This document shows, piece by piece, positions 21,681 through 38,505 of a stretch of DNA of 38,844 bases. The notes below the pieces were generated by a model. That model did not search any database and had not been told where the DNA came from. It saw only the letters and a list, made by a program, of their open reading frames with translations. Origin of the DNA: a virus; IMG/VR virus record IMGVR_UViG_3300043958_000214. The stretch is one strand, 5' to 3'. Within the stretch, counting starts at the first letter, position 1, and each line of letters begins with the position of its first letter. The translations under genes and the position numbers were made by a program.

Positions 21681-22490
21681 TCAACGGCGCTCGCGGAAGT
21701 CGGTGGTTCGACGGGTGACATAGACCTGTCCGTCGGCGGACAGGCTGGGACCATCCCCGTATATGACGACCTCTGAGCCGTCGTGGGCGATCACGGACGT
21801 CTTGCCGGAGGCGACGATGAGGGAGTCCTTCCACGCCAGTCCCGTCGCTCTCCCGCTGAGATGGGCATAGGCACCCATCTTGACGTCGACGTCCGCCAGG
21901 TCGCGGGCCTCCACGTATGCTCCCCGCCCGACCGCGACGACGTGTGCCTGGCCGGACGCGCGGCACACTCCCCGATCGCCGAGGGCGACGCGGGATCTGC
22001 TCACGGCGTTGACGAGGATCGGGCCGCGAGTGAGGACGATGCCGTTGTAGGCCGTGACGACGGGGGCGTCGTTTTCGTCGTGCGCGTCGACGAGGACGAT
22101 CCCGTCGTAGATGTCGAGGGCTACCGGTGACTGGAGTCCGCTGACGCGTAGTTTCCCGCCAGGGTAGGTCGCGGTGGTGCTCCTGGTCTTCCTGGTCGTT
22201 GGCGGGTCCACGACGATCTTGCTGATCCTGCCCGCGTTGGCGATCTGGATGGCTTCGTTTAGCGCTTTCTGGGAGCGCACCACGGCTGACCGGTCTCTCT
22301 CTACGAGTTCTGCGTTGGGGTAGGTGTTCTCGATGGACTCGCGTTGGGGGAACTGATGGGGAAGTTGGAGTGGGGCAAAGGCTCGCTCGAGTTCAACGCC
22401 CTCCGCGTCGGCGTGGTCCTTCGGGCTGTATTGGCCGACGTTGGCGGGGTTGGCGCCACGGCGGTGTTTCGTCTCGTCATATGTGCTCAT
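21681..22490 (-). CDS. Shared-leader protein 1, with C-terminal beta-solenoid-like V-x-A repeats
   Basis: Starts MSTYDETKHRRGANPANVGQYSPKDHADAEGV. Confidence 0.75.
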   Translation of the reverse strand: MSTYDETKHRRGANPANVGQYSPKDHADAEGVELERAFAPLQLPHQFPQRESIENTYPNAELVERDRSAVVRSQKALNEAIQIANAGRISKIVVDPPTTRKTRSTTATYPGGKLRVSGLQSPVALDIYDGIVLVDAHDENDAPVVTAYNGIVLTRGPILVNAVSRSRVALGDRGVCRASGQAHVVAVGRGAYVEARDLADVDVKMGAYAHLSGRATGLAWKDSLIVASGKTSVIAHDGSEVVIYGDGPSLSADGQVYVTRRTTDFRERR

Positions 22491-22608
22491 GACTCTTCTT
22501 GTGCGGCAAGTCTTGGCTTGGCCTACGTCTCCCAGGTGGGCTGCGACGTTTTGTCGGGAGGGTCGGGGGCCTGTCGCCAATTCGTTGTCGGCCAGGTGGG
22601 GCGTACTT

Positions 22609-22663
22609 CGCCACGAGAGCGCCCCACCTGGCCGTGATGGTCGGGTGGGGCGCTCTCGTGGCG
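22609..22663. terminator. Long hairpin closing the array downstream of cas8e
   Basis: CGCCACGAGAGCGCCCCACCTGGCC-GTGAT-GGTCGGGTGGGGCGCTCTCGTGGCG. Confidence 0.65.
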
Positions 22664-22749
22664 TTTCCCCTCGTGAGAGGGGATCAATGGTTGCCGTGAC
22701 GTAGTGACTTTCCAGCCACTTGGCTCACCCCCACTCTCGTGGGGATAGA
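22659..22749 (-). CRISPR. Degenerate type I-E mini-array (repeat, 33-nt spacer, repeat) downstream of cas8e
   Basis: Minus strand: TCTATCCCCACGAGAGTGGGGGTGAGCCA (22749-22721), spacer AGTGGCTGGAAAGTCACTACGTCACGGCAACCA, TTGATCCCCTCTCACGAGGGGAAACGCCA (22687-22659); 62-nt period. Orientation is not certain. Confidence 0.6.
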
Positions 22750-22774
22750 ACCAGAGTACACCGACCGCCCTACT

Positions 22775-24175
22775 TCACTGCTCGGCGGCGGGCCGTGCTT
22801 CGTTCCACTTCTTGCGGATGACGTTGGGGAGGGCTGCTGGCGGGAATCCGGGGCGGGGCGGGGGGACGGGGCCGACGATGCGTTCGACTACCCGGCAGGC
22901 GTCTTCCACCCACCGGTCCAGGGCTTTTAGGTCGAGGCGGCGTCCGCGCAGGTAGGCGAGGATCGTGGGCGCAGTCCTCGCCTCCTGCTCTTCGGTGATG
23001 TGCTGGTGCATGGTTTGGACCCAGTCGCTGGGGGCGCCGGGGCGGCGGGAGGCGCGGGCGCTGACGATGATGTGGCTGACCTCCTCCGCAATGCCGGTGA
23101 GGGATTCGACTGTGCGGGCCCGCTCGGCCAGGCCGCTCGTGGTGAGGGTGAGGGTCTGGGTCTCAATGTCATCGATGCGGGAGCGCTGGGGGCCAAACCG
23201 GGTGATGAGGGTCTGGACGTCGAGGGTGGGGGGAAGGTCTGCGGGTGGGTCCTCCAGGAGTCGGCGCACGCCCACTGGGAGGGTGGCCCCCTTGGGGAGG
23301 ATGGCGGTCCATGGCTCCCCCGCCCACTCCGCTTCGCGGGGGATGAGGTTCCCGGTTCCGGCCAGGCGCATGAGGGCGTGGGGGTCGGCCGAGCGGATGT
23401 TGGTGGAGGGGAGCTGGTCGCCGTTGGCGATGAAGGCGCCGACCGCGTGGTCGTCCGCGTCGAGGGTGAGGCGCAGGCGGCGTCCCGGCCACACCAGGAC
23501 TCTCCCCGCCCCGACCTCGCTCACCTCATAGACGCCCCTGGGACGGTCCGCCTCGTCCTCCCACATGGGGGTTTCATCCCCGCCGTTGGGCCCCTCGGGC
23601 AGGTTCCAGATGATGGTGCGGTCCAGGGTGGGGTGGATGACGAGCGTGTTCGGGGCGACGGTGAGGATTCCGGGGCCCACGGGCATGGTCTTGCCTCGCG
23701 TGGTGCGCGCGTCTCCTGCGATGCCTGAGCGGATCCCGGAGGGGTCGGCGAGCATCCGGCGCAGGAGCGCTCGGGCCGCCACGTCAGGCCCCACGGCGTG
23801 CGGGACGGTGGCGCGGTTGGTGTCCATGGTGACCAGGCGGTCCAGCCCGTCGGGGATGGTGGGGTTGGAGGGGGCCACATCGTACTGGAACGCGCGGTCC
23901 AGGTCGAAGCGTGCGCGCCAGCGGGCGAGATAGGCGCGAATCTCCTCCAGGGGCAGGCCGCCCTCCCACACCTCGCGCCACGGGCGCCCTGAGCACACGC
24001 GCCACGTGATGGAGATGAGGAGCCGCTCGATGCTGCGCGCCTCCATAGGATCGTCGCCGCCCACCATGGCGATCGCGGGCGCCTGGGAGAACACGTCGGC
24101 CAGGGAGAGGGTCGGCTGGGTGCCGTCCCGGCTGACGACGGGGATCCACGGGTCATCAACGAGATTGAACACCAC
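22775..24175 (-). CDS. cas8e: Type I-E Cascade large subunit Cas8e (Cse1/CasA), solitary and divergent
   Basis: FNLVDDPWIPV...LSLADVF, RFDL...FQ, AARALL...DPSGIRSG, TLDRTIIWNL and WPGRRLRL motifs typical of actinobacterial Cse1. Confidence 0.88.
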   Translation of the reverse strand: MVFNLVDDPWIPVVSRDGTQPTLSLADVFSQAPAIAMVGGDDPMEARSIERLLISITWRVCSGRPWREVWEGGLPLEEIRAYLARWRARFDLDRAFQYDVAPSNPTIPDGLDRLVTMDTNRATVPHAVGPDVAARALLRRMLADPSGIRSGIAGDARTTRGKTMPVGPGILTVAPNTLVIHPTLDRTIIWNLPEGPNGGDETPMWEDEADRPRGVYEVSEVGAGRVLVWPGRRLRLTLDADDHAVGAFIANGDQLPSTNIRSADPHALMRLAGTGNLIPREAEWAGEPWTAILPKGATLPVGVRRLLEDPPADLPPTLDVQTLITRFGPQRSRIDDIETQTLTLTTSGLAERARTVESLTGIAEEVSHIIVSARASRRPGAPSDWVQTMHQHITEEQEARTAPTILAYLRGRRLDLKALDRWVEDACRVVERIVGPVPPPRPGFPPAALPNVIRKKWNEARPAAEQ

Positions 24176-24178
24176 CCC

Positions 24179-24544
24179 TCACCTCCCCAACCGCTTGTAG
24201 ACGGTGGACCGGGTGACGTGGGCGCGCTCAGCGATCTGGGCGATGGGCATGCCCTGGATGTCGGCGGCGACCATCGCGCCCTGCAGGCGGTCCAGGGCGT
24301 CCAGGTACCTCATCTGGGCGGCCCGTGCCTCCTCCCCCAGATCCTCCAGCGCGCCATCTCCGAGCGCGTACTGGGCGGCCCCGACCAGCTGCTCAGCCGT
24401 CATGCCCGCCTCGTCCTCCGGGGCGTCGGGCTCCTGATCCCGGTAGATCTCACGGATGCGGGCGGCCGCCCGCTGGAAAAGCCCCTGCTGCTCCTCGGTG
24501 CCGGCCCCGTCGAGGTAGGCCAGTGTTTCTGGCGTGATGTCCAT
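24179..24544 (-). CDS. Small protein with C-terminal HTH (Aca-like regulator candidate)
   Basis: GMPIAQIAERAHVTRSTVYKRL; CAGGAG RBS; stop lies 4 nt before cas8e. Confidence 0.75.
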   Translation of the reverse strand: MDITPETLAYLDGAGTEEQQGLFQRAAARIREIYRDQEPDAPEDEAGMTAEQLVGAAQYALGDGALEDLGEEARAAQMRYLDALDRLQGAMVAADIQGMPIAQIAERAHVTRSTVYKRLGR

Positions 24545-24602
24545 GATGTGCTCCTGCCGATCGCGTGTCTGATAGGGGTGTGCGTGTGTGTATAGTGGCC
24601 TC

Positions 24603-24693
24603 AGGTCCCCCGCGTAGGCGGGGGTAGGCCGTTCTCGTCGACGGCTGGCCAAGCCAATGGCTTGAACTTCCCCGCGTATGCGGGGGATGCGGG
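24603..24693 (+). CRISPR. Type I-E mini-array (repeat, 33-nt spacer, repeat)
   Basis: AGGTCCCCCGCGTAGGCGGGGGTAGGCCG (24603-24631), spacer TTCTCGTCGACGGCTGGCCAAGCCAATGGCTTG, AACTTCCCCGCGTATGCGGGGGATGCGGG (24665-24693); TATAGT -10 at 24591-24596. Confidence 0.75.
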
Positions 24694-24727
24694 ACCCGGG
24701 CCTTCGGGCTGGGGTCCCGCTTTTCTT
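24689..24727 (+). terminator. Intrinsic terminator after the mini-array (may also serve the convergent gene)
   Basis: GCGGGACCCGGGCC-TTCG-GGCTGGGGTCCCGC followed by TTTTCTT. Confidence 0.75.
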
Positions 24728-24730
24728 GGG

Positions 24731-25300
24731 CTAGGCGATCCGCTGGGCCTGCCCGGCGGCGTCGCGCACGACCTCCACGACCGCTTCGCCGTCCGCGAGG
24801 TCCGCCCACATGGCGGCGTGGAGCCCGTCCTCCTCGCGCCACACCACCGGTGTCCGCTCGTAGTCGCCCGGGTCCTCATCGAGGACCCACTCCCACCGCA
24901 CCGCCTCGTCGATGGCCTCCGCGCATGCGCGCTCGGCCGCAGCCCCCGCGTCCTCCGCCTGGGCATCGAGGCTGGGTGAGGGCTCCAGGGCCTCCGCCCA
25001 CTCCCTGAGCGAGTCCAGGTCCTCGAGCGAGTCGATGCTCAGCACGCGCAGGAGCTCGCCGGCGTGGACGCTGCCGTCCCCGTCCTCCTCGGGCAGGGAG
25101 GCCACATCCTCGATCTGCGTCCCCTCATCGGTCAAGTAGGTCCGGGCGGCGGCGCGGGGCACCCCGTCCTCGTCGAGGTAGCGGTCCTCGCGCATGATGG
25201 CGACCCGGACCCCCTTCCAGGCGGTGGCGGGGATCGTGTGGGCGATGATGCCCTCGGGCAGTGACCAGGAGCGGACCCGGTCCTCGATCGTGGCGGTCAT
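24731..25300 (-). CDS. Acidic hypothetical protein (anti-CRISPR candidate by context)
   Basis: 189 aa, D/E rich; AAAGGA RBS. Confidence 0.7.
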   Translation of the reverse strand: MTATIEDRVRSWSLPEGIIAHTIPATAWKGVRVAIMREDRYLDEDGVPRAAARTYLTDEGTQIEDVASLPEEDGDGSVHAGELLRVLSIDSLEDLDSLREWAEALEPSPSLDAQAEDAGAAAERACAEAIDEAVRWEWVLDEDPGDYERTPVVWREEDGLHAAMWADLADGEAVVEVVRDAAGQAQRIA

Positions 25301-25312
25301 GACGTGTTCCTT

Positions 25313-25723
25313 TCAGGCGTTCCAGATGTCGTCCGCGTGGTCGCGGATCCGGGAGAAATTCTCGATGCCGGCGATCCCGGTCTCGTCCTGCCAGTCGACC
25401 AGGTCAGAGACCAGGACCAGGAACTGCTCGGTGGTCTCGGAGTCGACCAGCTCGGCGGTCTCCGGGAGGATGAGGCGCTCACCCATCCGCTCGTCGCAGG
25501 GGGTGTCCTCGGAGGCGGGGCCCTCGATGCGGACCAGGACCGGGGCGCCGGCCTCGATCGCCATGACCGAGAGGTAGGCGGCGAGCTCGGGGAGCTCGTC
25601 CATACCGGACACCCCGTGGCGGACCGCCTCGTCGTCCCCGTTCATGGGGAAGGAGTACTGCTGCTCCGGGTCGAGGAGGTCACTGAGGCTGCGGTCCTTG
25701 TCCTGCATCCGGTAGGTGATCAT
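25313..25723 (-). CDS. Acidic hypothetical protein (anti-CRISPR candidate by context)
   Basis: 136 aa, D/E rich; GAGAGGA RBS. Confidence 0.7.
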   Translation of the reverse strand: MITYRMQDKDRSLSDLLDPEQQYSFPMNGDDEAVRHGVSGMDELPELAAYLSVMAIEAGAPVLVRIEGPASEDTPCDERMGERLILPETAELVDSETTEQFLVLVSDLVDWQDETGIAGIENFSRIRDHADDIWNA

Positions 25724-25754
25724 CTCTGGGGTCCTCTCTCCCTCGCCGATGACA

Positions 25755-25796
25755 CCAGTGTATAGGGGTAGACACTCATCTGTCTACCCCTATACA
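25755..25796 (-). promoter_or_regulatory. Housekeeping-type promoter overlapped by a perfect 16-bp inverted-repeat operator
   Basis: TGTATAGGGGTAGACA-CTCATC-TGTCTACCCCTATACA (25759-25796); minus strand reads TAGACA-18 nt-TACACT. Confidence 0.7.
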
Positions 25797-25819
25797 GGGT
25801 GGCGTGTCACGATTTGATA

Positions 25820-26479
25820 ATGACCACTATCTCCGTACGTGCCGCCGTCAGGTCCCACACTGGGATCATGGATGACGGAATGCTCGAGCTCCGGTGGACA
25901 GACATCACCGGCGGTCAACGCTTCGCGGACACCGCAGACCCAGACCCTCATCGCGTCCTGCACCTCACCCCGCCTCAGAGGATCGCCATGCAAAAGCATG
26001 CTGAGCGTATGCTCGCCCAGCATGCCGCCCACGTCTTCGCGCCTTTCGGCGCTCTTATCGACGGCTCGCAGGTCCACTGGCCGCGGGAGCGGAGCGACGA
26101 GTGGAGGGCGATCCTACGCAGAGAGATGCCCGGACTCGTCGCGGACCTTATCGACGTCGACCTCGACGATGTGCGCGAGCGATGGCGGACCCAGGAGGAA
26201 AAGGCGTTCATCCTCGCCCGCCCTCCTCGCCCGGAAGGTCAGATCGCCACCTGGGAAGCCGGCGCCAGGGACCATCAGCAGATGCGGGAGATCACAATGC
26301 CTACGAACTCACGCTCCCCGCAGGAGTGGCGCGCACTCGCTGACGGCACCCTCCATCGTGCTGGATGGAGACGCATCGAAGAGTGGTGGTCTCCCCTTCC
26401 CGGAGCCGTAGCCGCCCACATCGAGCCAGCCACCGCCACGCATGCCTCATGCGCAAAAGGCAGGTCAACCGTAGACTGA
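25820..26479 (+). CDS. Hypothetical protein
   Basis: Protein-like ORF; start uncertain. Confidence 0.55.
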   Translation: MTTISVRAAVRSHTGIMDDGMLELRWTDITGGQRFADTADPDPHRVLHLTPPQRIAMQKHAERMLAQHAAHVFAPFGALIDGSQVHWPRERSDEWRAILRREMPGLVADLIDVDLDDVRERWRTQEEKAFILARPPRPEGQIATWEAGARDHQQMREITMPTNSRSPQEWRALADGTLHRAGWRRIEEWWSPLPGAVAAHIEPATATHASCAKGRSTVD

Positions 26480-26541
26480 CCGTCCCCTCGATGCCGGGTC
26501 GTTGGCACCGCCCAACCCAGCCGGCCTTCCACTCGCCTAGG

Positions 26542-27510
26542 TCAGATGTGCCGCCACGCGTAAACGAGAGCCCGATCATCTAAGGGCGCACCTTCGGGAC
26601 CCCGGATGTAGGTGTCGATCCATTGGAGGCGACGTAAACCCCGCCCCGGCCCATAAGGCTGATGCGTCCAATGCCCGCGCACAACATGCCGACGCGTCAA
26701 CACCCGACCAGAAGACCCGGCCACCCCTTCCTCCGGTACGTGACGCGGAGGACGCAAATCCACCACCCTCACCCGCCCAGCCTCAGGCGTCCCCGGCACA
26801 GCCACCCTCCCGCTTCGTGCCTCTATGACAGATTACGACACAGTGGTCGGCGTACGCATGAGGACCCACATCGCCGACAAAAACGCGAGAATCCCACGAT
26901 TCCCTTCGTTAGACAGCGGGCTACCCTCACGATCGACCGCATGCAACTCCGCGAAGACCACCGGGATAGGAGCCATCATCTCCGAGATCGACACGAGCTC
27001 CGACTGACCCGGATACACCGGCAGCGGAAGGCGCTCAGGTCTGCAATAGATGTCGACCCGGACGGCCCCCGGCGACAGGCTCCACCCGATCGCATCCACC
27101 GGCACCGGATCCATATACGGGATATCTGTCCGTAAGCCATCACGCAGACTCAACCCACCGAAACCGCGCGTGTCAATGGGTGGCAGAGGGGACTGGAAGA
27201 CGACGAACGCGCGATCCTCCGGGCAATCGGCATCGTCTATGGCTGGCACGTCCTGAGAAGCGTCGATCACCACTCTCGCCATGCTTTCGCTCACCCAGAT
27301 GAGGGTGGACCCCCCAGCGCTCTCGGCGGCTTCCTCATAGGTACGTACATGCCCCATGAGAGCCCCCGCCATCGGCACGCCCACACGACGCGCCTCTTCC
27401 GCGAGGGCTCGAAGACGCTCTTCCTCCTCACGCAACGAGACGACCAGCCGGTTCCTGATCCCCGGAAGCGCTCGCGGACCCCACCCAGAGGGCCCCCGTC
27501 GACGGCTCAT
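26542..27510 (-). pseudogene. Actinophage/plasmid-type protein with C-terminal VRGHW...YGPG...W motif, split by an in-frame TAA at 26833-26835
   Basis: ORFs 26833-27603 and 26542-26805 share one frame, separated by a single stop. Confidence 0.65.
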
Positions 27511-27746
27511 TGTGCCCGCCCGCGCGTGGTGAGGACACGCTCTTGCCGCACCATCGCCGAAGCGAATGTCGGGACATCGCTTGACGGGAACCTCGTGCCC
27601 CAACGCCGCGGAATCACACGCATATCATCGACGATACGCACGCGGATGGTCTTCTCGCAGCCCCACGATCGCCACGCCACCGAATGCGAGGTGTCCTCCA
27701 CTACGCCGCGGTAGCGCGCTTGGGAGGTGACCAGGTGGTGCCGCGT

Positions 27747-28436
27747 TCACCGACCGGCGTAGGCGACCTCGAAGGACTCGCCATTACGGAGGCTCTCAAA
27801 GTTGGGAGTGGTGACTACCCAGCCGGCCGCTCGAAGAGCCTCCCGGTAACGATCGGGTTCCCACTCCTCGTCGACCCAATCCGCTCCACCCTCCGCGCTG
27901 GGTGCGTAGTCCACGATCGTCGCCGCGGTCTCACCGTCAATGACGGCGAAATCCACGTCCTCGGCGTCCGGGACCTCGATGGCGATCTGCGTGCTGCCGT
28001 CACGGAAACACGCCGTCGCCTTCGTGCGCGCATGCCTGGCAAGAATCGCGCCTGCGTCGATATCGCCGATTTCTTCGACAATGGAGGCCCTCTCCTCCTC
28101 CGTCAGCGAATCATCCGATGCGGGGCCGACGATGAACGAGCCGTCGATCTCCCAGTTCGGACGGTACCGATGCAGGATCTCAGTGACCTCGCCCTCGAAC
28201 TCCTCGGTCGCCGCGTCTAGGTTGTAGTCATCGGCGTGATCGCCCGCGACCTCAGGCAGACCCCAACCATCTGCGAGATCATCCCCGCTCAGATAGGCCG
28301 CGGCGTTGCTCGTGATCTGCGTGCTCGGCTCGATCAAGCTCACCCCTTCCGCTTCGGCGTGGTCCTTCGGGCTGTACTGGCCGACGTTGGCGGGGTTCCC
28401 GCCGCGCCGATGTTTTGTCTCGTCGTAGGTGCTCAT
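27747..28436 (-). CDS. Shared-leader protein 2 (acidic)
   Basis: MSTYDETKHRRGGNPANVGQYSPKDHAEAEGV. Confidence 0.8.
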   Translation of the reverse strand: MSTYDETKHRRGGNPANVGQYSPKDHAEAEGVSLIEPSTQITSNAAAYLSGDDLADGWGLPEVAGDHADDYNLDAATEEFEGEVTEILHRYRPNWEIDGSFIVGPASDDSLTEEERASIVEEIGDIDAGAILARHARTKATACFRDGSTQIAIEVPDAEDVDFAVIDGETAATIVDYAPSAEGGADWVDEEWEPDRYREALRAAGWVVTTPNFESLRNGESFEVAYAGR

Positions 28437-28484
28437 ACCTCTCCTTGTGCGGCCCCGCACCACTACTATGACACAGCACACCCG
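28342..28484. repeat. 143-bp near-identical direct repeat (promoter plus leader coding sequence); second copy 29574-29716
   Basis: Offset of 1232 bp; aligned by eye; a more diverged copy sits at about 22395-22508. Confidence 0.85.
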
Positions 28485-28960: not shown

Positions 28961-29038
28961 CCGGGGCCGCCTTCCGCTCTCGGAACCGTTTCGTGGTTCC
29001 TCCTCACTTCGTTGTGAGACAAGGGGAGGATTGGCGCA

Positions 29039-29668
29039 TCAATACTCACCGGAGCCTACGTTCCAGACATCCTGCCAGTGCTCTCCGAAGAATTCCTCAG
29101 CACGCTCGGCCTGCTCTGCAAGCGCCCGAGACTTGGATTCCATACGCTCCAGATCCTCTTCATCTTCGATGGATTCTCCGAGCTCGTCCGCGAGTTCATC
29201 TGGGCTCATCCTCACAAAGTCGGCGTCTTCGGCGAACATGCGGACGGTCTGCGCGGCGTTCGGGCCGGATTGATGGATTCCGGTCCAAATGTCGGTGGCG
29301 AGGTGCTGCTCATCGCCACCGCTGTTGACGCGGTAGAGATGGACGATGTAGTGATCCTGATAGGCACCATGACGGTCATCGGACCCCAGGTACTGCGCGG
29401 TAGCAGTAACGCCGATAGATTCCAATAGATTCGCCGTCTCAATCTCCTCGTTGGGGAGGTCGAGGTGCCACGGGTTCAACATCGGGATGGGAGTCTCATC
29501 AATCGGGTGTGGCGCGTAACCCGTCAAGTCCCCGTGCGTGCCGGGGTCAAGTACCTTCTCTTTCATCAGAGCAACCCCCTCCGCTTCGGCGTGGTCCTTC
29601 GGGCTGTACTGGCCGACGTTGGCGGGGTTCCCACCGCGCCGGTGCTTCGTCTCGTCGTATGTGCTCAC
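29039..29668 (-). CDS. Shared-leader protein 3 (acidic)
   Basis: GTG start, then STYDETKHRRGGNPANVGQYSPKDHAEAEGV. Confidence 0.8.
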   Translation of the reverse strand: MSTYDETKHRRGGNPANVGQYSPKDHAEAEGVALMKEKVLDPGTHGDLTGYAPHPIDETPIPMLNPWHLDLPNEEIETANLLESIGVTATAQYLGSDDRHGAYQDHYIVHLYRVNSGGDEQHLATDIWTGIHQSGPNAAQTVRMFAEDADFVRMSPDELADELGESIEDEEDLERMESKSRALAEQAERAEEFFGEHWQDVWNVGSGEY

Positions 29669-29827
29669 ACCTTTCCTTGTGCGGCCCCGCACCGCTACTT
29701 TGACACAGCACACCCGAGGTCTCTGTTGCTTTCGTTGCAAGGCGAAGGGCTGGACGACGGCCGGCGAGCATCGGGGGTAGACGTCTAGAATGGTGCACCG
29801 GCCGAGGAGGAGTGGCACACACGAGGC

Positions 29828-30265: not shown

Positions 30266-30301
30266 TCCACCGGGGTCAGGCGTCGGGCGGGTCTGTGCGG
30301 C

Positions 30302-30766: not shown

Positions 30767-30808
30767 ACTTCTGTTGTGGGGCACTGGACCCACTCGCGCG
30801 CCGACTTA

Positions 30809-31390
30809 CTAGAAGAGGTCCGTGATCCCGAACGTCGTACGGTGGTAGATCGCGCTGCGCAGGGCTCGCTTGGGGTTTCGGATCCAGCCGACCCCCTTCT
30901 TCCCGTACCAGGGAATGATGGCTCGCTTCAGGGCTCTCGTCAGTCGGCCGGTGGTCCGAGCGGCGATAGACTTCCGCGGGCTAAACTCGCGTAGGCCAAC
31001 CTTTGGGAGCTTCCTCGGCCTACGAGGCCGAGCCGAGGCTTGCGGGGACTGAAGCGAATCAGGCTTACGGGTATCAGAACTAGTGTGTTGATATAGATTT
31101 GAACAATTTCGCTTCAATTGATTCCAGTTCCATTCAGTTCTTATGTTTTGAGCAGGAATAGACTGTTTTCGGTAGGGTTTTCGCCCGGGCTGGACGGTCT
31201 TGGACCGGAAGTGTTCACGTGCCAGAACCCTCCACGCCTCGGACTCGACGCGGCGACGCTGCGCTGGGGTCAGCGTCGCCTGCGGGATCGCGCCGACCAG
31301 CGAGATGCTTGAGTCTGAGTGCCGGGCCGGAGCGAACCTCCCGCCGCCCAACGGGGAGCCCGCCGGCTGACGGTTCTCATTGCGCTCCAT
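30809..31390 (-). CDS. Shared-leader protein 4 (variant leader) fused to a basic conserved prophage domain
   Basis: RQPAGSPLGGGRFAPARHSDSSISL N-terminus; C-terminal SIAARTTG...IPWYGKKGVGWIRNPKRA...TTFGITDLF. Confidence 0.7.
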   Translation of the reverse strand: MERNENRQPAGSPLGGGRFAPARHSDSSISLVGAIPQATLTPAQRRRVESEAWRVLAREHFRSKTVQPGRKPYRKQSIPAQNIRTEWNWNQLKRNCSNLYQHTSSDTRKPDSLQSPQASARPRRPRKLPKVGLREFSPRKSIAARTTGRLTRALKRAIIPWYGKKGVGWIRNPKRALRSAIYHRTTFGITDLF

Positions 31391-31542
31391 GGGACTCCTT
31401 GTGCGGTTGGATCAAGCGGACCGCTACGAACCGGTATGAATACCGTGCATGGGGAACGGCGCTGTCTCACAACATCCGTGACGACGTTCGGCCGTCGACG
31501 CCCACGTGGCGCATGCTCATCACCAACTGCGAAGGAAGTCCA

Positions 31543-31776
31543 ATGTTCACCATCCCCCAGGTCGCCGAGGAGCTGGGCACCACTCCCGCCCTCCTGTTCG
31601 ATCTGATCGCTTCCGGCGACATCGTGCCGGTGGAGGGCCCTCTGCTCTCCCGCGATCAGGTCGAGGCTCTGCGCGAGAAGCTCCCCGACAACAGGTCCGA
31701 ACTCATCCGACGCCTCCGCGACGAGCAGGTCATCGACGACGCCATCGCCGAGGGGAGCAAACTTCTCGAAAAGTGA
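31543..31776 (+). CDS. Excisionase/MerR-like HTH protein
   Basis: MFTIPQVAEELGTTPALLFDLIASGDI; GAAGGA RBS. Confidence 0.65.
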   Translation: MFTIPQVAEELGTTPALLFDLIASGDIVPVEGPLLSRDQVEALREKLPDNRSELIRRLRDEQVIDDAIAEGSKLLEK

Positions 31777-31800
31777 GCTGTCGGCACGCGACCGCCTTCA

Positions 31801-32304
31801 TCAGGCGGGGAGGACGCACACGCCCAGCCCAGACTCCCCGACGGCTCGAGCGCACTCTCCTCCCCAAGCCAACAGCATCGACCCGGATCCGGGCGCCCCA
31901 CCCCTCTCGGTCGTCCCGCCCTTGATGAAGTGGATGCGGCCGGCGACGAAGCAGATCACATCCGACGTCGGGGCAACCTCTTGGAACCAGGCGGGGTCGG
32001 TGCGCGCGAAGACGAGAGCGATACCCGACCCGCCCGCCGCGGCATGGTCCCGCATCCTGCGCATCCACGCGGACGTATGAGCACCGTAAGGCGGATTCAA
32101 GAACACGCGCCCTTCCCAGGGGGACGCTAAGCCGTCGTCGATCCGGGTGAGGACGCGGTCTGCGGGGACGAAGGACTTCCCCGGGCCCGGCGAACACGGG
32201 TCGAGGTCGAAACGAAGGCCCAGAGCATCGAAGATCTCTGGCGGGGTGTACCACTCGACGGAGTTGATATGGGGCGATTCGTGGGTGAAGCCGGAGGCTG
32301 GCAT
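31801..32304 (-). CDS. Phage-type DNA N6-adenine methyltransferase
   Basis: EWYTPP, FDLDPCS, VFLNPPYG, ARTD..WFQ, GRIHF. Confidence 0.9.
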   Translation of the reverse strand: MPASGFTHESPHINSVEWYTPPEIFDALGLRFDLDPCSPGPGKSFVPADRVLTRIDDGLASPWEGRVFLNPPYGAHTSAWMRRMRDHAAAGGSGIALVFARTDPAWFQEVAPTSDVICFVAGRIHFIKGGTTERGGAPGSGSMLLAWGGECARAVGESGLGVCVLPA

Positions 32305-32338
32305 GCCATGTGTGTGCCCCCCGCCCGCCGCCAGCGGA

Positions 32339-32872
32339 CTACCCCCAGTGGGTTGTCCGGCATTCCGGGCACCGGCACCGGAGCCTGTACCCGCCTTCGG
32401 TTCCGTGAGCGATATCCGGATCCCGCCCGCTCATCAGGGCGTCGTCGAGTTCACGGCGCCACTCTTCGTTCCACTTGGCGATCCCGTGGAGACGCTGGGG
32501 TGTCAGGCCTGTTTCCTCTCTGACCTCCTCGAATGTGCCGCCAGAAGAGAGGATCTCAATGACCGTGCTCTTATGGTCGGCGAGCAGGTTGAGCGCCTGC
32601 GCGCGCCTGGATCCGCGCAGGTGAGCGTTATGGGCGGCGAGGCACTCGTCGCACGGGCAACCAGCCCTCCATCGTGTCTCAGTGCCGTGGTCGGCCCGGA
32701 TCCCACCATGGCGCCCATTGTCAGCGGCCTTGTTCTGGGCTTTTCTGACTTGGGCGAGAGTCCATGGTCCTTCGCCCAGATAGCCGATCCGTACCCATCT
32801 TTCCACCGTGGTGGAGGCGACGCCGACGGCTTGCGCTGCTTTTCTGCACGATTCGAGTCGCTTCGCCGTCAT
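32339..32872 (-). CDS. HTH protein with two HGT...CxCxxC metal-binding motifs
   Basis: AAQAVGVASTTVERW; HGTETRWRAGCPCDEC; HGTEGGYRLRCRCPEC. Confidence 0.75.
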   Translation of the reverse strand: MTAKRLESCRKAAQAVGVASTTVERWVRIGYLGEGPWTLAQVRKAQNKAADNGRHGGIRADHGTETRWRAGCPCDECLAAHNAHLRGSRRAQALNLLADHKSTVIEILSSGGTFEEVREETGLTPQRLHGIAKWNEEWRRELDDALMSGRDPDIAHGTEGGYRLRCRCPECRTTHWG

Positions 32873-32893
32873 CGTCCGCCCTCCCGCAGAAAC

Positions 32894-32922
32894 CTGTTCA
32901 TCCCCGCACTCGCGGGGACGTT
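32894..32922 (-). CRISPR. Solitary type I-E-like repeat unit, intergenic
   Basis: Minus strand AACGTCCCCGCGAGTGCGGGGATGAACAG; 29 nt with the 5+6+4+6+8 layout; no partner repeat about 61 nt away. Confidence 0.5.
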
Positions 32923-32962
32923 TAGAGGCTACCTGGGCGACGCCGGCGAATCCACTCGGCTC

Positions 32963-33193
32963 TCAGCGCACATACGTGTTCGCGGGCACGTCGGCGTAGC
33001 CGTGGTCGCAGAAGTACCGGACGACGGCCGACGCTTCTGCGTCGAAGTTGATGGCCTGGAGGACCTCGCCGAACGTGGCTCCGTCTTCGGCGAGAAAGAC
33101 GATGAGGTCGCTGGTAGCCTGCGTGGTGGACGCGAAAGGACGTTTGCGGCCTGGCAGTACCCAGTCGACACCCAGATCGAGACGTCTACTCAC
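32963..33193 (-). CDS. Hypothetical protein
   Basis: AAGGAG RBS before GTG. Confidence 0.55.
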   Translation of the reverse strand: MSRRLDLGVDWVLPGRKRPFASTTQATSDLIVFLAEDGATFGEVLQAINFDAEASAVVRYFCDHGYADVPANTYVR

Positions 33194-33302
33194 TCTCCTT
33201 CACCCTCGTGAAACTGATCGAGTTCGGCGCAGCCCTGGTGAACGGGTCCCGGACGGCAACTCTCGACAAGGATGGAACTCAGAAGATCCGCAACAACTGG
33301 AT

Positions 33303-34349
33303 CTACTTGGATGACTCCCCTCTTAGCTGAATCTCGCTCAGGGGCTTGATTGAGTTCGCAGCGAGGGCCGCATACTCTCCATCTCGTTCAATACCTATGC
33401 TCTCGTAGCCGACCGCTTCCGCGGCTGCCAAGGTTGATCCAGACCCTGCGAAAGGGTCAAGGACGATGCCCTCGCCTAGCGGAAGAATTGCTCGAACAAC
33501 CTGTCGCAAGAATGCCTGGGGCTTTAGCGAGGGATGTGGAGCAATCTTACGTTCTGACGAGCGCGTTGGACCTGATCGGATCACATCTCCGAAGGGCTGA
33601 TCCTCAGAGATGCGCCTGAGCCCGCCCGTCTTCCATGTGCGAAGGTTCTGAGCCACTGTGCCTTCGACCGGTTTTCGGAAGAGCAACCAAGGCTCCCACA
33701 TGCTCCGTGGCATCACCGAGACATCTGCGAACTCCTCGTGGGCGTTCTTGGGGCGATCCCCTCCGCGCATCGTCTGGACGAGGCGAATCACCTCACCCCG
33801 GCGCTCAAAGCCTGCCATGTCTAAGGCTCTTGACACATGATGAGAAAGCAGTGGATTGCAGGCGAGCATGATGTGTCCGCCCGGGGTCAAGATTCGAAGC
33901 GCCTTCTCTCCAAACAACCGGAAGAAGCGCTCCAGGCTGTCGATATCGGCCGCGCTGAGCGTGGTAAACCTCGGGAGAGGCGAGCGCTGATGGCCGTCGA
34001 AGGAAGGCGGGATTCTCCAAACTCCACACTTGCCGTTTCTGAGCTTCGCCTGTTCGCGGGAGGTGTATTCGACCAGTCCGTAGGGCGGATCTGTGACGAT
34101 TCCGTGGATGCTTGACTCTGCTCTTTGGTCGAGCCAGTCGAGGCTGTCAGCATAGTAGAGCGTCGCCTTGCCGACAGTTGCTAGAGGTTCCTCAACGGAT
34201 GGTTCTGGCACTGCTGGCTCGGGAGGAGGCGTCTGGAGCAGCTGGTAGCGGACGTGCCCCAGCGAATCATCAACCGAACCGATGATCTCGCGCAGGGCGA
34301 GCGTGTCCTCTTCTGCGTCCACGCCCAAGGATCGGTGCGCCCGCCTCAC
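33303..34349 (-). CDS. N4-cytosine/N6-adenine DNA methyltransferase (beta class)
   Basis: IVTDPPYG, HPSLKP, VLDPFAGSGST; GTGA overlap with the upstream stop. Confidence 0.9.
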   Translation of the reverse strand: MRRAHRSLGVDAEEDTLALREIIGSVDDSLGHVRYQLLQTPPPEPAVPEPSVEEPLATVGKATLYYADSLDWLDQRAESSIHGIVTDPPYGLVEYTSREQAKLRNGKCGVWRIPPSFDGHQRSPLPRFTTLSAADIDSLERFFRLFGEKALRILTPGGHIMLACNPLLSHHVSRALDMAGFERRGEVIRLVQTMRGGDRPKNAHEEFADVSVMPRSMWEPWLLFRKPVEGTVAQNLRTWKTGGLRRISEDQPFGDVIRSGPTRSSERKIAPHPSLKPQAFLRQVVRAILPLGEGIVLDPFAGSGSTLAAAEAVGYESIGIERDGEYAALAANSIKPLSEIQLRGESSK

Positions 34350-35080
34350 GCGAATCCTCCACGCCACGCCATGCCCTCGGACTCCGCGGCTTGGCGGGTG
34401 GGCGCCTCGCTTGGGAACGGGTCCCAGATGGTCCCGCCCCGGGGTGTGGTCAGTCTGGCGAGTTCGCGCAGGAGTGCGAGCGGCGGCGTTCCGGTGTCGT
34501 CGGGTCCGGTCCAGAAGAAGCGGCTGGCTCCGCCTCTCTCGGCGCCCCTGGAGGGCGTGAGTTCGCGTTGGCCTGCGAACGGGTGGTAGACGGCTCGGAA
34601 CATGTCGCCTCCGCGTCGCGTGGGGTTCGCCCCGGACGTGAGGATCCCGGACTGTGTGTCCAGGGCGGCGACCGGGCAGGACGGGACGCAGCTTCCTGGG
34701 GTGCAGCCCACGGCGTGGGTGAACATGACGTCGGCCGGCCATCTTCCGACGGTCGAGGGCCCACCACCGATACGACACGCACCGACATTGAGCCCGCCGA
34801 CCCCGTGGCGAAGGACGTTGGCAGCGAATGTGCCGCCTGCAGGTTTGCGGGCGAGGACGATCGGGGTGATGGACCCGCCTTCGCGGATCCAGGCGATGGA
34901 GTCGAAGACGGTGAACCCGGCGTCCTCCACCTCGATGGCGAACCGGTGCCACGCGCCGAGGTGGGTGAGAGCGACGAGGTTCGCTCCCGGGAGGAGCCCG
35001 GCGAAGGTGTTTTCGGCCCAACCGTCGGGGCGCTCGTCGGGCGGGCAGGTGAGGACCGCGTGGGAGGGCGCACTCATCAT
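34346..35080 (-). CDS. Degenerate beta-class DNA methyltransferase paralogue (catalytic and SAM-binding motifs lost)
   Basis: VLTCPPD in place of DPPY; WDPFPSEAPT in place of DPFxGSGT; retains WHR...EDAGF, PIVLARKP and GRWPADV. Confidence 0.7.
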   Translation of the reverse strand: MMSAPSHAVLTCPPDERPDGWAENTFAGLLPGANLVALTHLGAWHRFAIEVEDAGFTVFDSIAWIREGGSITPIVLARKPAGGTFAANVLRHGVGGLNVGACRIGGGPSTVGRWPADVMFTHAVGCTPGSCVPSCPVAALDTQSGILTSGANPTRRGGDMFRAVYHPFAGQRELTPSRGAERGGASRFFWTGPDDTGTPPLALLRELARLTTPRGGTIWDPFPSEAPTRQAAESEGMAWRGGFA

Positions 35081-35994
35081 GCTGCTCTCCTCTCGCCGGT
35101 CACGCGCTCGAGACGTTGTTCGATGAGGGGCACGTAGGTCTCCTCGCGCTCGATCCCCACCCACTGGCGTCCCTCCAGGCTTGCGGCCTCCGCGGTCGTC
35201 CCGGACCCCAGGAACGGGTCGAGGACAGTGCCCCCTCGCTGCGCTGACAGTGTGATGAGGGTGCGCATGAGGGCTAGTGGTTTCACCGTCGGGTGGACCT
35301 TTCCGTCGGGTCCGACCGGCCGCTCCGATTTCGGGGCTTTTGCGCAGTAGAAGAACCGCTCCTGCAAGTCGTCGAGCGGCAGATGGACGGCGGGTCCGGG
35401 TTTGCGCGCGACAACGATCGGCTCGAATGCGGGACGCAGCTGCGTATTCCACCCCGCCCAGCGCTTCGCCGTCTCGGAGGTCGTGACCGTCACTGGTGTA
35501 GACCGGCGGTCGCTGTAGCCGCGCCCACCCGGATGGTCATGGAGCGCAGCGGCGGCCATCTTGTCCAGCGTCTTCGCGATGTTCTGTCCGTGGGGCATCC
35601 CCTGCCCATGAACCCACGCCAATGGCTCGTCCAGGATGAGGCCGGCGTCCTCCAGGCCGGCGGCGAGACGGTGCCAGGTCCGGGGGGCACCGAACGTGAG
35701 GCCGACGGCACCGGGCTTCATGACGCGGAGCAGGCGCTCTCCGATCGCCTTCGACCATGCCTCGAACTCGTGGACATCCGTGTCCGCATGCCCGCGCGAA
35801 TGCGTGCCCCCATAGGCGTAGGCGCCACGGCGCTCCTTGCCGGTGGCGATCTGACCGAGCATTGTCGGGTGGTCCCAGGACTGGCCCATGAAGTCCAGCG
35901 AGTAGGGCGGGTCCGTGACGACGGCGTCGATGCTGTCCGCGGCGAGGCATTCGAGTTCTGCGAGGGCGTCGCCGATGACGAGACGGCCGGTCAT
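35077..35994 (-). CDS. N4-cytosine/N6-adenine DNA methyltransferase (beta class)
   Basis: VVTDPPY, HPTVKP, VLDPFLGSGTT. Confidence 0.93.
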   Translation of the reverse strand: MTGRLVIGDALAELECLAADSIDAVVTDPPYSLDFMGQSWDHPTMLGQIATGKERRGAYAYGGTHSRGHADTDVHEFEAWSKAIGERLLRVMKPGAVGLTFGAPRTWHRLAAGLEDAGLILDEPLAWVHGQGMPHGQNIAKTLDKMAAAALHDHPGGRGYSDRRSTPVTVTTSETAKRWAGWNTQLRPAFEPIVVARKPGPAVHLPLDDLQERFFYCAKAPKSERPVGPDGKVHPTVKPLALMRTLITLSAQRGGTVLDPFLGSGTTAEAASLEGRQWVGIEREETYVPLIEQRLERVTGERRAA

Positions 35995-36269
35995 CGGTTC
36001 ATCGCCAGGGCTGTGTCATAGCGCTGCGTGCACCAACGCGCGTCCCCATACGTGAGAGCGAGGTTGAGTGGCGGCCAGAGAGCCAAACTGGCGAGAACGG
36101 CGAGAATGGTGGACGTGTGGACGGGATGCCAGATGAGGGTTTCGATGGCCAGAACCGCCAGGACGGCGAGTTCCACGACAGCATGCCATCGCGCGGTGAG
36201 CAGCTTCTCCTGCGAGTCGTACATGCGGCAGAACATGTAGTCGAGCGTTCGTCTGAGGGATGTGGACAT
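35991..36269 (-). CDS. Small membrane protein (two predicted TM helices)
   Basis: Hydrophobic segments; ATGA coupling to the methylase. Confidence 0.65.
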   Translation of the reverse strand: MSTSLRRTLDYMFCRMYDSQEKLLTARWHAVVELAVLAVLAIETLIWHPVHTSTILAVLASLALWPPLNLALTYGDARWCTQRYDTALAMNR

Positions 36270-36311
36270 GCCTTGTGTGTGCCAGACGTCCGAGCGCTAG
36301 CGAACACGGAG
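36267..36311. repeat. 45-bp direct repeat (promoter and start); second copy 37430-37474; the pair brackets the C5 methylase
   Basis: CATGCCyTGTGTGTGCCmGACGTCCGAGCGCyAGCGAACACGGAG. Confidence 0.85.
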
Positions 36312-36319
36312 CGTTGAGG

Positions 36320-37432
36320 CTAGAGGTGGAGGGCCTGCTTGACCGCTTCGGCGGCCGCGAGCGCGAGGCGCGGGGGAACGGCGTTCCCGATCTGGCGGTA
36401 CCGGGAGGACTGCGGGCCCTGCCATTCCATGTTGAGTGGGAACGTCTGGATGGCGGCGGCCTCCTCGACTGTCAGGCGTCGCAGGGGGTCGGGGGCGTTG
36501 CGTGTCGAGGCGTTGGCGCCCCGGTTGAGGAGGGCGGTGTGGTAGCCCACCACCCACGGTTCCGCGTTCTCATTCTCCAGGGCGAGCTGGTCGATGATGG
36601 GAGTCAGATTCCCGCCGATTGATGCGGCCAGGGTGAGGGAAGGCGCGTCGAGATCCAGGGGACGCCCTCCTCCGTTGAAGAGCATTCCCGCGTACGGTGA
36701 CCGGCACGTCTGGTTGTTGCCCGGCTTCCCGTAAGGGGAAAGCTGAGCGAGCGCTTCCCGGACCGTTGGGCTGTCCAGCGGAGTGGTTGGTACAGGGGCG
36801 ACCGGCTGTCCGACATCCTTGTGAACCCCGAGGAACAGCATCCTCTCCCTCGACTGCGGGACCCCGAAGTGGGCGGCATTCACTAGGGTGAGCGCGGTGT
36901 TGTACCCCAGAGTGTCGGCGCGTTCGAGCAGCCTTCTGCGGACGTCCTCCCAGCGCTTGCTCTGGTAGAGGCTCTTCACGTTCTCCATGACGAACGCCTT
37001 GGGGTGGACGCGCTCGACCATGTCGAGGAAGTGAAAGACGTGCTGGGAGCGCGGGTCACCGGGGTCCATCTTTCCTGCGACGCTGAATCCCTGGCAGGGC
37101 GGGCCACCAATGACGAGGTCCGCCGAACCTTCTCCCGGAAGTTCGTCCTCGGGGATGGCGAGGAGGTCTCCTATCCTGGTGGCGTGACGGGTCCCCCTGA
37201 GGTGGGGGCGGGTTTCCGTGAGCCGCTCGAAGGCCTTGTCGTGGGTCCGGGACGCCCACGGGGTGAGTTCGTTGGTCCACACAGGCGCGAACCCGGCGAG
37301 GGCGAATCCGATGTCCAGTCCGCCGGCTCCGGCGAACAGGGACACGTACGTGGCGAGCGGCGTGTCGTGCGTCGGGACGTCACTGTAGTCGCTGAGCGGG
37401 TGGTCACCTCTGTGCTCCGGTGTGGCGGGCAT
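36320..37432 (-). CDS. C5-cytosine DNA methyltransferase (orphan)
   Basis: SLFAGAGG, GGPPCQGFS, MENV, PQSRER, RRLTVEE, QIGNAVPP. Confidence 0.95.
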   Translation of the reverse strand: MPATPEHRGDHPLSDYSDVPTHDTPLATYVSLFAGAGGLDIGFALAGFAPVWTNELTPWASRTHDKAFERLTETRPHLRGTRHATRIGDLLAIPEDELPGEGSADLVIGGPPCQGFSVAGKMDPGDPRSQHVFHFLDMVERVHPKAFVMENVKSLYQSKRWEDVRRRLLERADTLGYNTALTLVNAAHFGVPQSRERMLFLGVHKDVGQPVAPVPTTPLDSPTVREALAQLSPYGKPGNNQTCRSPYAGMLFNGGGRPLDLDAPSLTLAASIGGNLTPIIDQLALENENAEPWVVGYHTALLNRGANASTRNAPDPLRRLTVEEAAAIQTFPLNMEWQGPQSSRYRQIGNAVPPRLALAAAEAVKQALHL

Positions 37433-37576
37433 GCCCTGTGTGTGCCCGACGTCCGAGCGCCAGCGAACACGGAGGGCACTTCGCTCGTGTCCGTCAGGAC
37501 CGAGAGAATGTGCCGAGCGACGCTGCGGAGGAGTGGAGTGAGGGAATGCCGGCGCACGGAGAGCCCGGCCGTGCCG

Positions 37577-38278
37577 TCAGTAGCGAGGGGCCAGGTCGCC
37601 GCGTTCGCGCATCCGGTACTCCACGTTGGAGACGTTGACCATGACGCTGCGCCCCCGAGTGGCGAGCGCTCGCTCGCTCTCAGCGCGCGAGTTCTCGATC
37701 CACTGGGCGGCGGACTTTCGGGTTGCGCCGCGACCTGCGACGGCGCGGGGTGTGATTGCGCCGGCATCGAGTTGTCTGCGCAGGTCGTCGTAGTGGACGA
37801 GGTCTCGCTTGAAGTCGTCCTCCGAACGCCCCACTGATTCCCCGCGCCAGATACTCTCGAACTCGTCCTCGAAGTCCTCGGGGATTGGCAGCCCCTGCTC
37901 GTAGGCGCGACCGAAGAACTCGTAGCGGGCGTGGAACTTCGCGGACTTCTCGACCTCCTCGGGGTCGAGGTTCTCGTCGACGTAGCGTTCCCATTCGGCC
38001 AGATTCGCCTTGGAGCGGCGCTTCCCTGGCATGTGCCGTTCGAACGTGTCGACCGCCCTGTTCCAGACTGCTTGGTCTCGCGCCTGCTCACGCCCCCATT
38101 CGCGATCCTCGTCCGTGACCATCTGGTCCGGGGCGATGAACTCCGCGAGCATCTGCTCCCGCGTCGGGGATGTCCCCAGCTGAAGGTCCGGGGCCTCGCC
38201 ATACGTCCGGGTGGTCCACTGGCCAGTGTTGTTCGGGTTGCCGCCGCGGGGATGATCCGCTTCGTTGTAGGTGCTCAT
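37577..38278 (-). CDS. Shared-leader protein 5
   Basis: MSTYNEADHPRGGNPNNTGQWTTRTYGEAPDLQL. Confidence 0.8.
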   Translation of the reverse strand: MSTYNEADHPRGGNPNNTGQWTTRTYGEAPDLQLGTSPTREQMLAEFIAPDQMVTDEDREWGREQARDQAVWNRAVDTFERHMPGKRRSKANLAEWERYVDENLDPEEVEKSAKFHARYEFFGRAYEQGLPIPEDFEDEFESIWRGESVGRSEDDFKRDLVHYDDLRRQLDAGAITPRAVAGRGATRKSAAQWIENSRAESERALATRGRSVMVNVSNVEYRMRERGDLAPRY

Positions 38279-38505
38279 GACCATCCTTGTGCGGCACGAG
38301 ACGGACGTCGAGTGGAGTACTTCGCTCACGCCCCACTGGCGCCATACCCCATTCTGAGGCGCAAGACACTAGGTGAGCAGACCCACCTGCAATGCTTGAA
38401 GAACGGCGGGGAAGATGTCCTTGCTCAGATGATGATCCGGGCCGATCTTCCGGCAACCGCGCAGAACGTCGGATCCGGCTCCACTGCCGTACCCAGCGAG
38501 ATGGA

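Follow-up and report, generated by a model that had tools for sequence, protein, structure and literature searches.

Why should five proteins with unrelated bodies begin with the same peptide? We addressed this question for a 38,844-nucleotide stretch of DNA, IMG/VR virus record IMGVR_UViG_3300043958_000214 (the window), on which an earlier note had pointed out five genes with a common N-terminal leader and had proposed that the leader is a modular tag. Translation of the minus-strand open reading frames (ORFs) starting at positions 22490, 28436, 29668, 31390 and 38278 reproduced all of the quoted N-termini, and profile hidden Markov models (HMMs) bore out the common leader, with the copy at 31390 belonging to a sister class. 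The tag is translated, selected, modular and unstructured, and its core is, by sequence comparison, homologous to the peptides that head the modules of phage head-anchored polyvalent proteins. Our tentatively favored reading is that it serves as a linear recognition tag for proteins that would be delivered with, or act on, incoming DNA.

The first leader gene (P0001, 269 aa; 21681..22490, minus strand) carries its leader in codons 1–34 (22389–22490), ahead of a basic (pI 9.0), repeat- or solenoid-like body with a weak match to phrog_15773. The second (P0002, 229 aa; 27747..28436, minus strand; leader 28335–28436) has an acidic body (pI 4.1) that matches the phage family phrog_919 with an E value of 2e-11, and the third (P0003, 209 aa; 29039..29668, minus strand; leader 29567–29668), which starts with GTG while the other four start with ATG, also has an acidic body (pI 4.2). 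In the fourth gene (P0005, 193 aa; 30809..31390, minus strand) the sister-class leader RQPAGxPxGGRF..HSDSSISL, at 31292–31390, is followed by a very basic linker, and the body has a pI of 11.9. Residues 130–193 of P0005 (GWIRNPKRALRSAIYHRTTFG) match phrog_10934 and three further PHROG families of unknown function at E values of 7e-25 to 5e-19, and since its C-terminal domain matches four phage families, the gene is real. The fifth gene (P0004, 233 aa; 37577..38278, minus strand) has a diverged leader, HPRGGNPNNTGQW, at 38177–38278 and a body of pI 5.1. An independent metagenome gene caller returned identical products of 229, 209 and 193 aa, and for the gene at 38278 a product of 235 aa with the start two codons earlier. 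The bodies are indeed unrelated, as the earlier note had it: pairwise comparison of the five yielded no significant similarity (best BLASTP E 0.045), and their pI ranges from 4.1 to 11.9.

Four of the five window leaders follow the pattern MSTY[DN]E..H.RGGNP.N.GQ[YW]. The tag of about 33 residues has two parts, aromatic-[DN]-E-x-[DK]-H-P/R-R-G-x-x-P-x-N-x-G-Q-aromatic (part A) and x-K-x-H-x-E-x(4)-L (part B). A sister leader class, RQPAGxPxGG[QR]F..H.[DE]S..L, takes the place of this HPRG form on many DUF7007 homologues; the P0005 leader, RQPAGSPLGGGRF..HSDSSISL, is the sister form of these homologues, close relatives of which bear the HPRG form. An HMM built from seven leader copies and searched against every six-frame ORF of the window recovered the four HPRG-type leaders at 75–89 bits (E 1e-22 to 1e-26), with the rest of the window ORFs giving noise, and missed the P0005 leader. 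The latter matched the short-variant or sister class only: residues 15–36 scored 13–14 bits with a short-variant leader HMM (E 0.006 over all window ORFs), with the runner-up at an E value of 3. Using a mixed profile of N-terminal and internal copies, P0001–P0003 were recovered from 5.8 billion proteins at E values of 2e-8 to 5e-12.

Close copies of the leader have diverged at synonymous sites (pS 0.34–0.68) with almost no change at nonsynonymous ones (pN 0.00–0.09; pN/pS 0.00–0.15), indicating that the leader amino acids are under purifying selection. This selection on the leader codons implies that the similarity is more than recent DNA duplication, in line with the earlier argument. The leader is a modular tag at the N-terminus of proteins that are otherwise unrelated. 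Among the five closest paralogues (window 22389–22490, 28335–28436 and 29567–29668; L001 2040; L004 10001) codons 14–27 (42 nt) are identical at the nucleotide level and the flanking codons have many synonymous changes, which suggests local gene conversion. When 15 copies were compared, the invariance of codons 14–27 was lost and synonymous variation extended along the whole leader. An RNA element was rejected, because RNAalifold on the 15 copies gave −3 kcal/mol and no covariation.

To see how the tag relates to the body that it precedes, we used AlphaFold2 on P0008, a tagged DUF7007 protein encoded elsewhere on the same element (26-sequence alignment). The body was modelled with pLDDT >90 (mean for P0008 89.5), and residues 1–36 had a pLDDT of 46–48 and were undocked from it, so that in the model the tag behaves as a flexible linear motif. 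Foldseek found no match of the DUF7007 model in the PDB at E ≤1e-3, and VIA-align aligned its C-terminal helical hairpin to generic coiled coils only, which was uninformative; for P0002, a single-sequence AlphaFold2 model reached a mean pLDDT of 47.6 and was discarded as poor. Several simple functions for such a peptide were rejected. The leaders contain no hydrophobic run, and the RR of KHRRG is followed by G-G-N-P, so the tag is not a Sec or Tat signal, as had been noted earlier. DNA binding by an AT-hook-like P-R-G-x-P element is unlikely for a motif with a net acidic charge of about −1 to −3. Self-cleavage was rejected because the motif is followed by no conserved Ser, Thr or Cys and because the N-P pair varies, reading Q-P in phage copies. 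A J-domain, which the motif resembles in its HP-x-x-NP...F pattern, was rejected on the grounds that P0001–P0005 had no DnaJ (PF00226) match at E ≤1 and carry HPR or HRR, not the HPD tripeptide found between helices II and III of that domain. The sole sequence match to the motif in the PDB was 7m4z_v, in the tail at the C-terminus of a ribosome hibernation factor from Acinetobacter (residues 97–110, TFEKKEHPRGGQPE; E 0.03), probably by chance.

Where else does the motif occur? A core-motif profile searched against 1.84 billion cluster representatives gave 74 matches, about 55 of them N-terminal on small, mutually unrelated proteins and the remaining ones internal, two to five to a protein, in carriers as long as 3180 aa. 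The long carriers are polyvalent proteins with ART, NUDIX and TopoIB domains, in which an extended motif, aromatic-[DN]-E-x-[DK]-H-P-R-G-x-P-x-N-x-G-Q-F, stands ahead of each domain. A broader profile yielded 294 matches, and those listed were mostly fusions to Phage_portal_3, Mu portal, Phage_portal, MuF or DUF2213, with modules including ART, NUDIX, TopoIB, Zeta-toxin, InPase, RelA/SpoT, GNAT and kinase; in addition, the PHROG portal profile phrog_113 contains a stretch that aligns with the motif. Among 175 carriers, 60 had a single N-terminal copy, and in the other 115, which were multi-copy or internal, the motif was never at the extreme C-terminus and was typically followed by 200–600 residues. 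These position statistics indicate that the functional unit is the motif, a linker and a domain, and the window genes are free-standing versions of this unit.

The link to HPR..G.F motifs of phage head proteins, of which the leader had seemed reminiscent in the earlier note, is real: the core motif heads the modules of portal-, MuF- and DUF2213-fused polyvalent proteins and also begins consecutive head-module genes of a complete phage. The gene order in this 114-kb phage genome is MuF, TopoIB, a 127-aa ORF, an 859-aa HExxH protein, DUF2213 and the major capsid protein, and a motif-bearing leader stands at the start of each of three consecutive genes that lie between MuF on one side and the protease and capsid genes on the other. 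Similarly, in an Acidaminococcus prophage the motif follows the portal domain of the portal protein, and the next ORF begins with the motif. For phage G001, a complex prediction of the leader of the 127-aa ORF (residues 1–50) with the adjacent DUF2213 protein and a 334-aa ORF scored 0.07. Microbacterium phage UtzChips gp4, considered as a cultured motif carrier, was rejected, as it has MuF and GNAT-like domains and lacks the motif. Pfam and NCBIfam contain no model for the motif; in the searchable literature it is undescribed, and nothing relevant was found on DUF7007, DUF8359 or DUF7241.

On the element to which the window belongs, local HMM scans of all fetched loci counted 18 tagged genes, a minimum for the whole element. 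Five lie in the window and two just past its start, directly after a DnaJ-like gene; others are P0007 (DUF8359), P0008 and P0012, and seven consecutive ones occupy the far end of a 124-kb contig that ends beside the gene at 38278. An ArdC-N/Peptidase_M78-like anti-restriction protein (L036 7401–8510), with the leader variant TFDESKVKRGQPGNAGQF, alone among the tagged cargos has a function of a known kind, and it fits the anti-defence cargo envisaged in the earlier note. The bodies of the 18 genes include a single related pair, and 13 of the 18 are acidic. Beyond the element, other plasmid-like lineages repeat this layout, with seven tagged genes within 13.6 kb at locus L009 and two adjacent ones at locus L010, and megaplasmids of Pseudarthrobacter, Arthrobacter and Curtobacterium carry N-terminal short-form copies (HPRxxxGxF) where the motif falls at the gene start given by RefSeq. 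On the Arthrobacter and Curtobacterium plasmids the annotation shows small DUF4236 proteins close to tagged genes. The DnaJ-like gene (L016 6198–7379) stands directly upstream of its two tagged neighbors, HSP70 is encoded at L036 5676–7379, and on the Pseudarthrobacter plasmid a J-domain protein gene (L008 14291–14989) is directly upstream of a tagged gene. This adjacency may be synteny only or a hint of a chaperone handling tagged proteins.

Each leader gene of the window is also preceded by a short DNA box. The minus-strand boxes are CCGCACAAGAA for gene 1 (22496..22506), where 7 nt separate CCGCACAAG from the start codon, and CCGCACAAGGA for genes 2 (28442..28452), 3 (29674..29684), 4 (31396..31406) and 5 (38284..38294). 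Thus, CCGCACAAG(G/A)A is found 7 nt before the start in 5/5 leader genes, one copy being GAA, and the arrangement of CCGCACAAG, 7 nt and start codon recurs in 17 of the 18 tagged genes (window, L001, L004, L016, L036 and L037). The Shine-Dalgarno-like bases between box and start are variable. At ≤1 mismatch the window contains 6 box matches compared to 1.03 expected; the sixth, at 7039–7049, was dismissed as chance, lying inside codons 5–8 of a primase-like ORF with no start after it. A GCCGCACA box precedes tagged genes in the Pseudarthrobacter, Arthrobacter and Curtobacterium megaplasmids. The box looks like a regulon-defining cis element and is possibly a private promoter.

What kind of element carries these genes? 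Window proteins were found on metagenome contigs of up to 192 kb, and by walking along contigs we examined about 100 kb of the element. It encodes ParA, a tyrosine integrase, an AAA_30 helicase, a complete type I-E cas operon (L004; Cse1 of 542 aa), Fic, ParE, at least seven orphan DNA methyltransferases, a dCTP deaminase/dUTPase, the DnaJ-like protein and RNase T; to these, a further contig from that sample adds HSP70, the ArdC-N protein, GmrSD_C and an SLT+NlpC/P60 hydrolase. About 20 kb past the window start lies a gene for a VirB4-like AAA_10 ATPase (1279 aa; L016 16228–20067; E 1.4e-7), with neighbors encoding small ORFs, a DUF348-G5 wall protein, DinG-like and SNF2 helicases, and MT-A70. 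An insert at about residues 450–900 of the ATPase, which matches genes for terminase and DnaB from intein-rich mycobacteriophages and Gordonia phages, is probably an intein. The full-length relatives of the ATPase are "ATP-binding proteins" that share synteny and are encoded on megaplasmids of Paenarthrobacter, Pseudarthrobacter, Arthrobacter and Curtobacterium; more distant ones belong to the Bifidobacterium pMP7017 family, which is experimentally conjugative (PMC8313286, PMC10832533). The element is best described as a conjugative-type actinobacterial megaplasmid (Micrococcaceae-type, at least 192 kb), with transfer machinery that is recognizable only in part. Megablast of the window against plasmids and phages gave no match, a related-locus search confirmed one locus in genomes and one in viral contigs, and tblastn with motif peptides of 36–43 aa was uninformative. 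In three independent assemblies (L011, L012 and L013; beyond 38844) the gene upstream of 38278 lies about 0.9 kb from the contig end, and the end of one 118-kb contig falls close to window position 33049. These ends could be assembly breaks induced by repeats (the leader cassettes) or a true terminus.

If the tag is indeed a recognition signal, each leader gene would be a free-standing cargo module comprising a private upstream box, a flexible bipartite tag and an unrelated body. The tag would be read by one common partner and would mark establishment and anti-defence proteins for co-delivery with the element DNA, the route being a conjugative VirB4-type apparatus on the element and the procapsid in phages. 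We favor such a recognition tag because it is modular and placed on many bodies, a pattern repeated in other lineages (L009, L010 and the relatives' megaplasmids), because selection acts at the protein level with no conserved RNA structure, and because the motif carriers are dominated, among the matches listed, by portal, MuF and DUF2213 fusions. The flexible appendage predicted by AlphaFold2, the motif-linker-domain geometry and the parallel with phage head genes point in the same direction, as do the tagged ArdC-N protein, given that ArdC of pSa is reported to be transferred in the course of conjugation (PMC5512222), and the precedent of the T4 internal proteins. A bolder extension, which we consider unlikely, is that HPRG...GQF is a cross-machine signal read by phage procapsids and actinobacterial conjugation alike and enough by itself to bring whatever protein is appended to it into the next cell; in that case the megaplasmid would hold some 20 anti-defence effectors for delivery, many of them with an unknown fold, under one private promoter box.

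Several observations weigh against a delivery signal. The portal- and MuF-fused modules are already anchored, yet there is one motif per module, so pure docking leaves the per-module motif unexplained. The H, R, N and G residues are invariant across phyla, three portal families, and phages and plasmids, which argues for a universal ligand or an intrinsic role, not for a machine-specific receptor. Known substrate signals of type IV secretion systems (T4SSs) sit at the C-terminus or internally, not at the N-terminus. In the roughly 100 kb of the element examined, no receptor, coupling protein or capsid is visible, nor any virion gene (procapsid, scaffold or prohead protease). Single Pfam models for MuF and TerL_ATPase had no match in five related megaplasmids, and an HK97-type capsid (Phage_capsid) was likewise unmatched in the two records searched for it, including the Pseudarthrobacter plasmid. 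Neither a TrwC relaxase nor a VirD4-type coupling protein (T4SS-DNA_transf) was found in the five related megaplasmids, where divergent actinobacterial versions may escape the models. With the capsid, coupling-protein and relaxase models unmatched, the delivery machine is evidenced only in part, by the VirB4-like ATPase and the cell-wall hydrolases.

Because of the anchored arrays, the invariant residues and the lack of a visible receptor, coupling protein or capsid, we keep substantial weight on a binding peptide without a delivery role, a serious alternative that we nevertheless regard as rather unlikely. Here, the tag would be an interaction peptide acting after ordinary expression, probably early in a new host, on a single conserved partner, which could be a universal host hub or a factor of the element such as its own Hsp70 or J-protein, and it would localize, activate, hold unfolded or time the turnover of co-regulated establishment proteins. 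The identity of the motif residues across Actinomycetota, Bacillota and Proteobacteria-type phages and plasmids, with any portal family, favors such a universal ligand, and a disordered tag that is undocked from its own body is compatible with it; the one upstream box common to the tagged genes would place them in one regulon. The HSP70 and DnaJ-like proteins of the element, the J-protein adjacency on both the element and the Pseudarthrobacter plasmid, and the failure to find a coupling protein, relaxase or virion gene within the scopes searched count in the same direction. Against this stands the strong enrichment of the motif in fusions to head-internal anchors (portal, MuF and DUF2213), which indicates delivered and not ordinary cytoplasmic proteins; moreover, the J-protein adjacency is possibly plain synteny and is absent around the tagged genes of the Curtobacterium and Arthrobacter plasmids.

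It is less probable still that the motif is a proteolytic processing site or hinge at which a head, element or host protease releases the modules of polyvalent proteins, which would make it a removable propeptide on the free-standing genes. The T4 capsid-targeting sequence (CTS) is both a targeting signal and a cleavage site, which counts for this explanation, as does the position of the motif between modules and ahead of Gly/Ser/Pro/Lys-rich linkers. The phage protein P0050 combines two motifs with an HExxH domain, and Iyer et al. proposed that a zincin-like peptidase processes polyvalent proteins (PMC5512222). However, a cut within residues 1–22 of a free-standing protein frees nothing useful, yet about 55 clusters are built in this way. 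No protease family consistently co-occurs with the motif, no peptidase was seen near the genes of the window, and the absence of a catalytic Ser, Thr or Cys after the motif leaves self-cleavage unsupported.

We find it hard to believe that box and leader are kept mainly as a DNA homology arm for swapping bodies, like the VENN-type boundaries of polymorphic toxin loci, with the peptide having little function. Tandem arrays of box, leader and variable body would suit such an arm, and so would the identical codons 14–27 in the five closest copies with the gene conversion that they suggest, the interchangeable leader classes on DUF7007 homologues and the upstream bases that each lineage conserves as its own. 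However, synonymous sites diverge freely (pS up to 0.68) while the amino acids are held, the 15 copies vary along the leader, and the motif is kept between phyla with different codons and no DNA similarity. Finally, the suggestion that the leader is an artefact, either untranslated 5′ sequence or chance from recent duplication, has in its favor the repeated DNA itself and nothing further, and it is effectively refuted by selection and distribution, given the HMM E values, the purifying selection, the gene starts at the motif (including RefSeq relatives) and hundreds of carriers elsewhere.

Immediately upstream of leader gene 1 lies a solitary Cse1/Cas8e-like gene (22775–24175, minus strand; 466 aa), with a CRISPR_Cse1 match at E 1e-44 that is below the TIGR02547 cutoff, to which an HTH gene (24179–24652, minus strand) is coupled; the solitary protein may be a decoy or an anti-CRISPR. 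Four orphan DNA methyltransferase genes on the minus strand (31801–32304, 33303–35021, 35077–35994 and 36320–37432), one Dam-like, two N6/N4 and one C5, alternate with tagged genes and run in the same direction as these, and three more lie nearby (L016 and L018). The gene caller splits the one at 33303–35021 into 33303–34328 and 34346–35080. Such a methyltransferase-rich stretch is typical of an anti-restriction or establishment region. On the plus strand, an 852-aa P-loop ORF (8174–10732), split in one assembly, was rejected as a terminase, its PHROG matches being faint and the leading Atlas assignment a weak ParA/MinD (0.80). A 425-aa ORF (11801–13078, plus strand), considered and rejected as a portal, resembles a divergent sigma-70-family factor (Atlas 0.93–0.97), and this sigma-like factor could read the private box of the element.

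How does the tag compare with known systems? Among characterized ones, the T4 CTS and the polyvalent and MuF-toxin architectures come closest. Encapsulin cargo-loading peptides are short, disordered and conserved, usually C-terminal, and dock unrelated cargo inside a shell of the HK97 fold. The tag resembles them as a short, disordered, conserved peptide on unrelated cargos and differs in its consensus and in that no shell gene was found here. The T4 CTS is a peptide of about 10 residues, which attaches to the scaffolding core and which the prohead protease cleaves. Like the tag, it is a short hydrophilic N-terminal peptide placed on many cargos; those of T4 are anti-defence proteins, which it leads into the DNA-delivering particle. 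The tag differs from it in length, in being also internal and repeated in giant proteins, and in the lack of scaffold, protease and capsid on the part of the element examined. In the T4 internal proteins (IPI-III and Alt), diverse defence proteins, the CTS is the sole common feature (PMC3012670).

In content the tag system is like the polyvalent proteins described by Iyer, Burroughs, Anand, de Souza and Aravind in 2017 (PMC5512222), with effectors such as ART, NUDIX, TopoIB, Zeta, InPase and ArdC-N, portal and MuF anchors, and delivery with the invading DNA. The modules on the element differ in being separate genes, each with its own box and tag, as if a polyvalent protein had been taken to pieces. 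That paper does not mention the motif ('HPR' 0 times, 'linker' 0 times). MuF polymorphic toxins (Jamet et al. 2017, PMC5576092) similarly combine a head-internal MuF anchor with variable C-terminal effectors for injection, and several motif carriers are MuF fusions; the window proteins, in contrast, have no MuF domain, no MuF gene was found in the five related megaplasmids, and no conserved inter-domain or N-terminal motif is described in PMC5576092. The tagged ArdC-N protein of the element is of the same anti-restriction or establishment type as proteins that conjugative T4SSs transfer. Those proteins differ in their C-terminal or internal signals, and a coupling protein and relaxase were undetected in the five related plasmids. 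ArdC of pSa, the TraC1 primase of RP4 and Sog are cited in PMC5512222 as being sent to the recipient with the DNA. The finding may be described either as a cargo tag of the CTS kind or as a polyvalent architecture split up into genes that each carry a tag.

The question can be tested by experiment, since culturable relatives exist in the Pseudarthrobacter, Arthrobacter and Curtobacterium megaplasmids. If the tag proves to be a universal-host-factor binding peptide instead of a delivery signal, it would be a regulon-wide handle common to phages and plasmids and undescribed in the searchable literature. If it is a delivery or recruitment signal, it would provide a sequence rule for finding the proteins that mobile elements send ahead of, or with, their DNA. 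This rule would apply to dozens of functionally uncharacterized families here and to hundreds of polyvalent modules, many of them likely counter-defence proteins, and it would link the capsid and conjugation routes by one motif and provide a tag that could be moved between proteins to load them into phage particles or mating channels.

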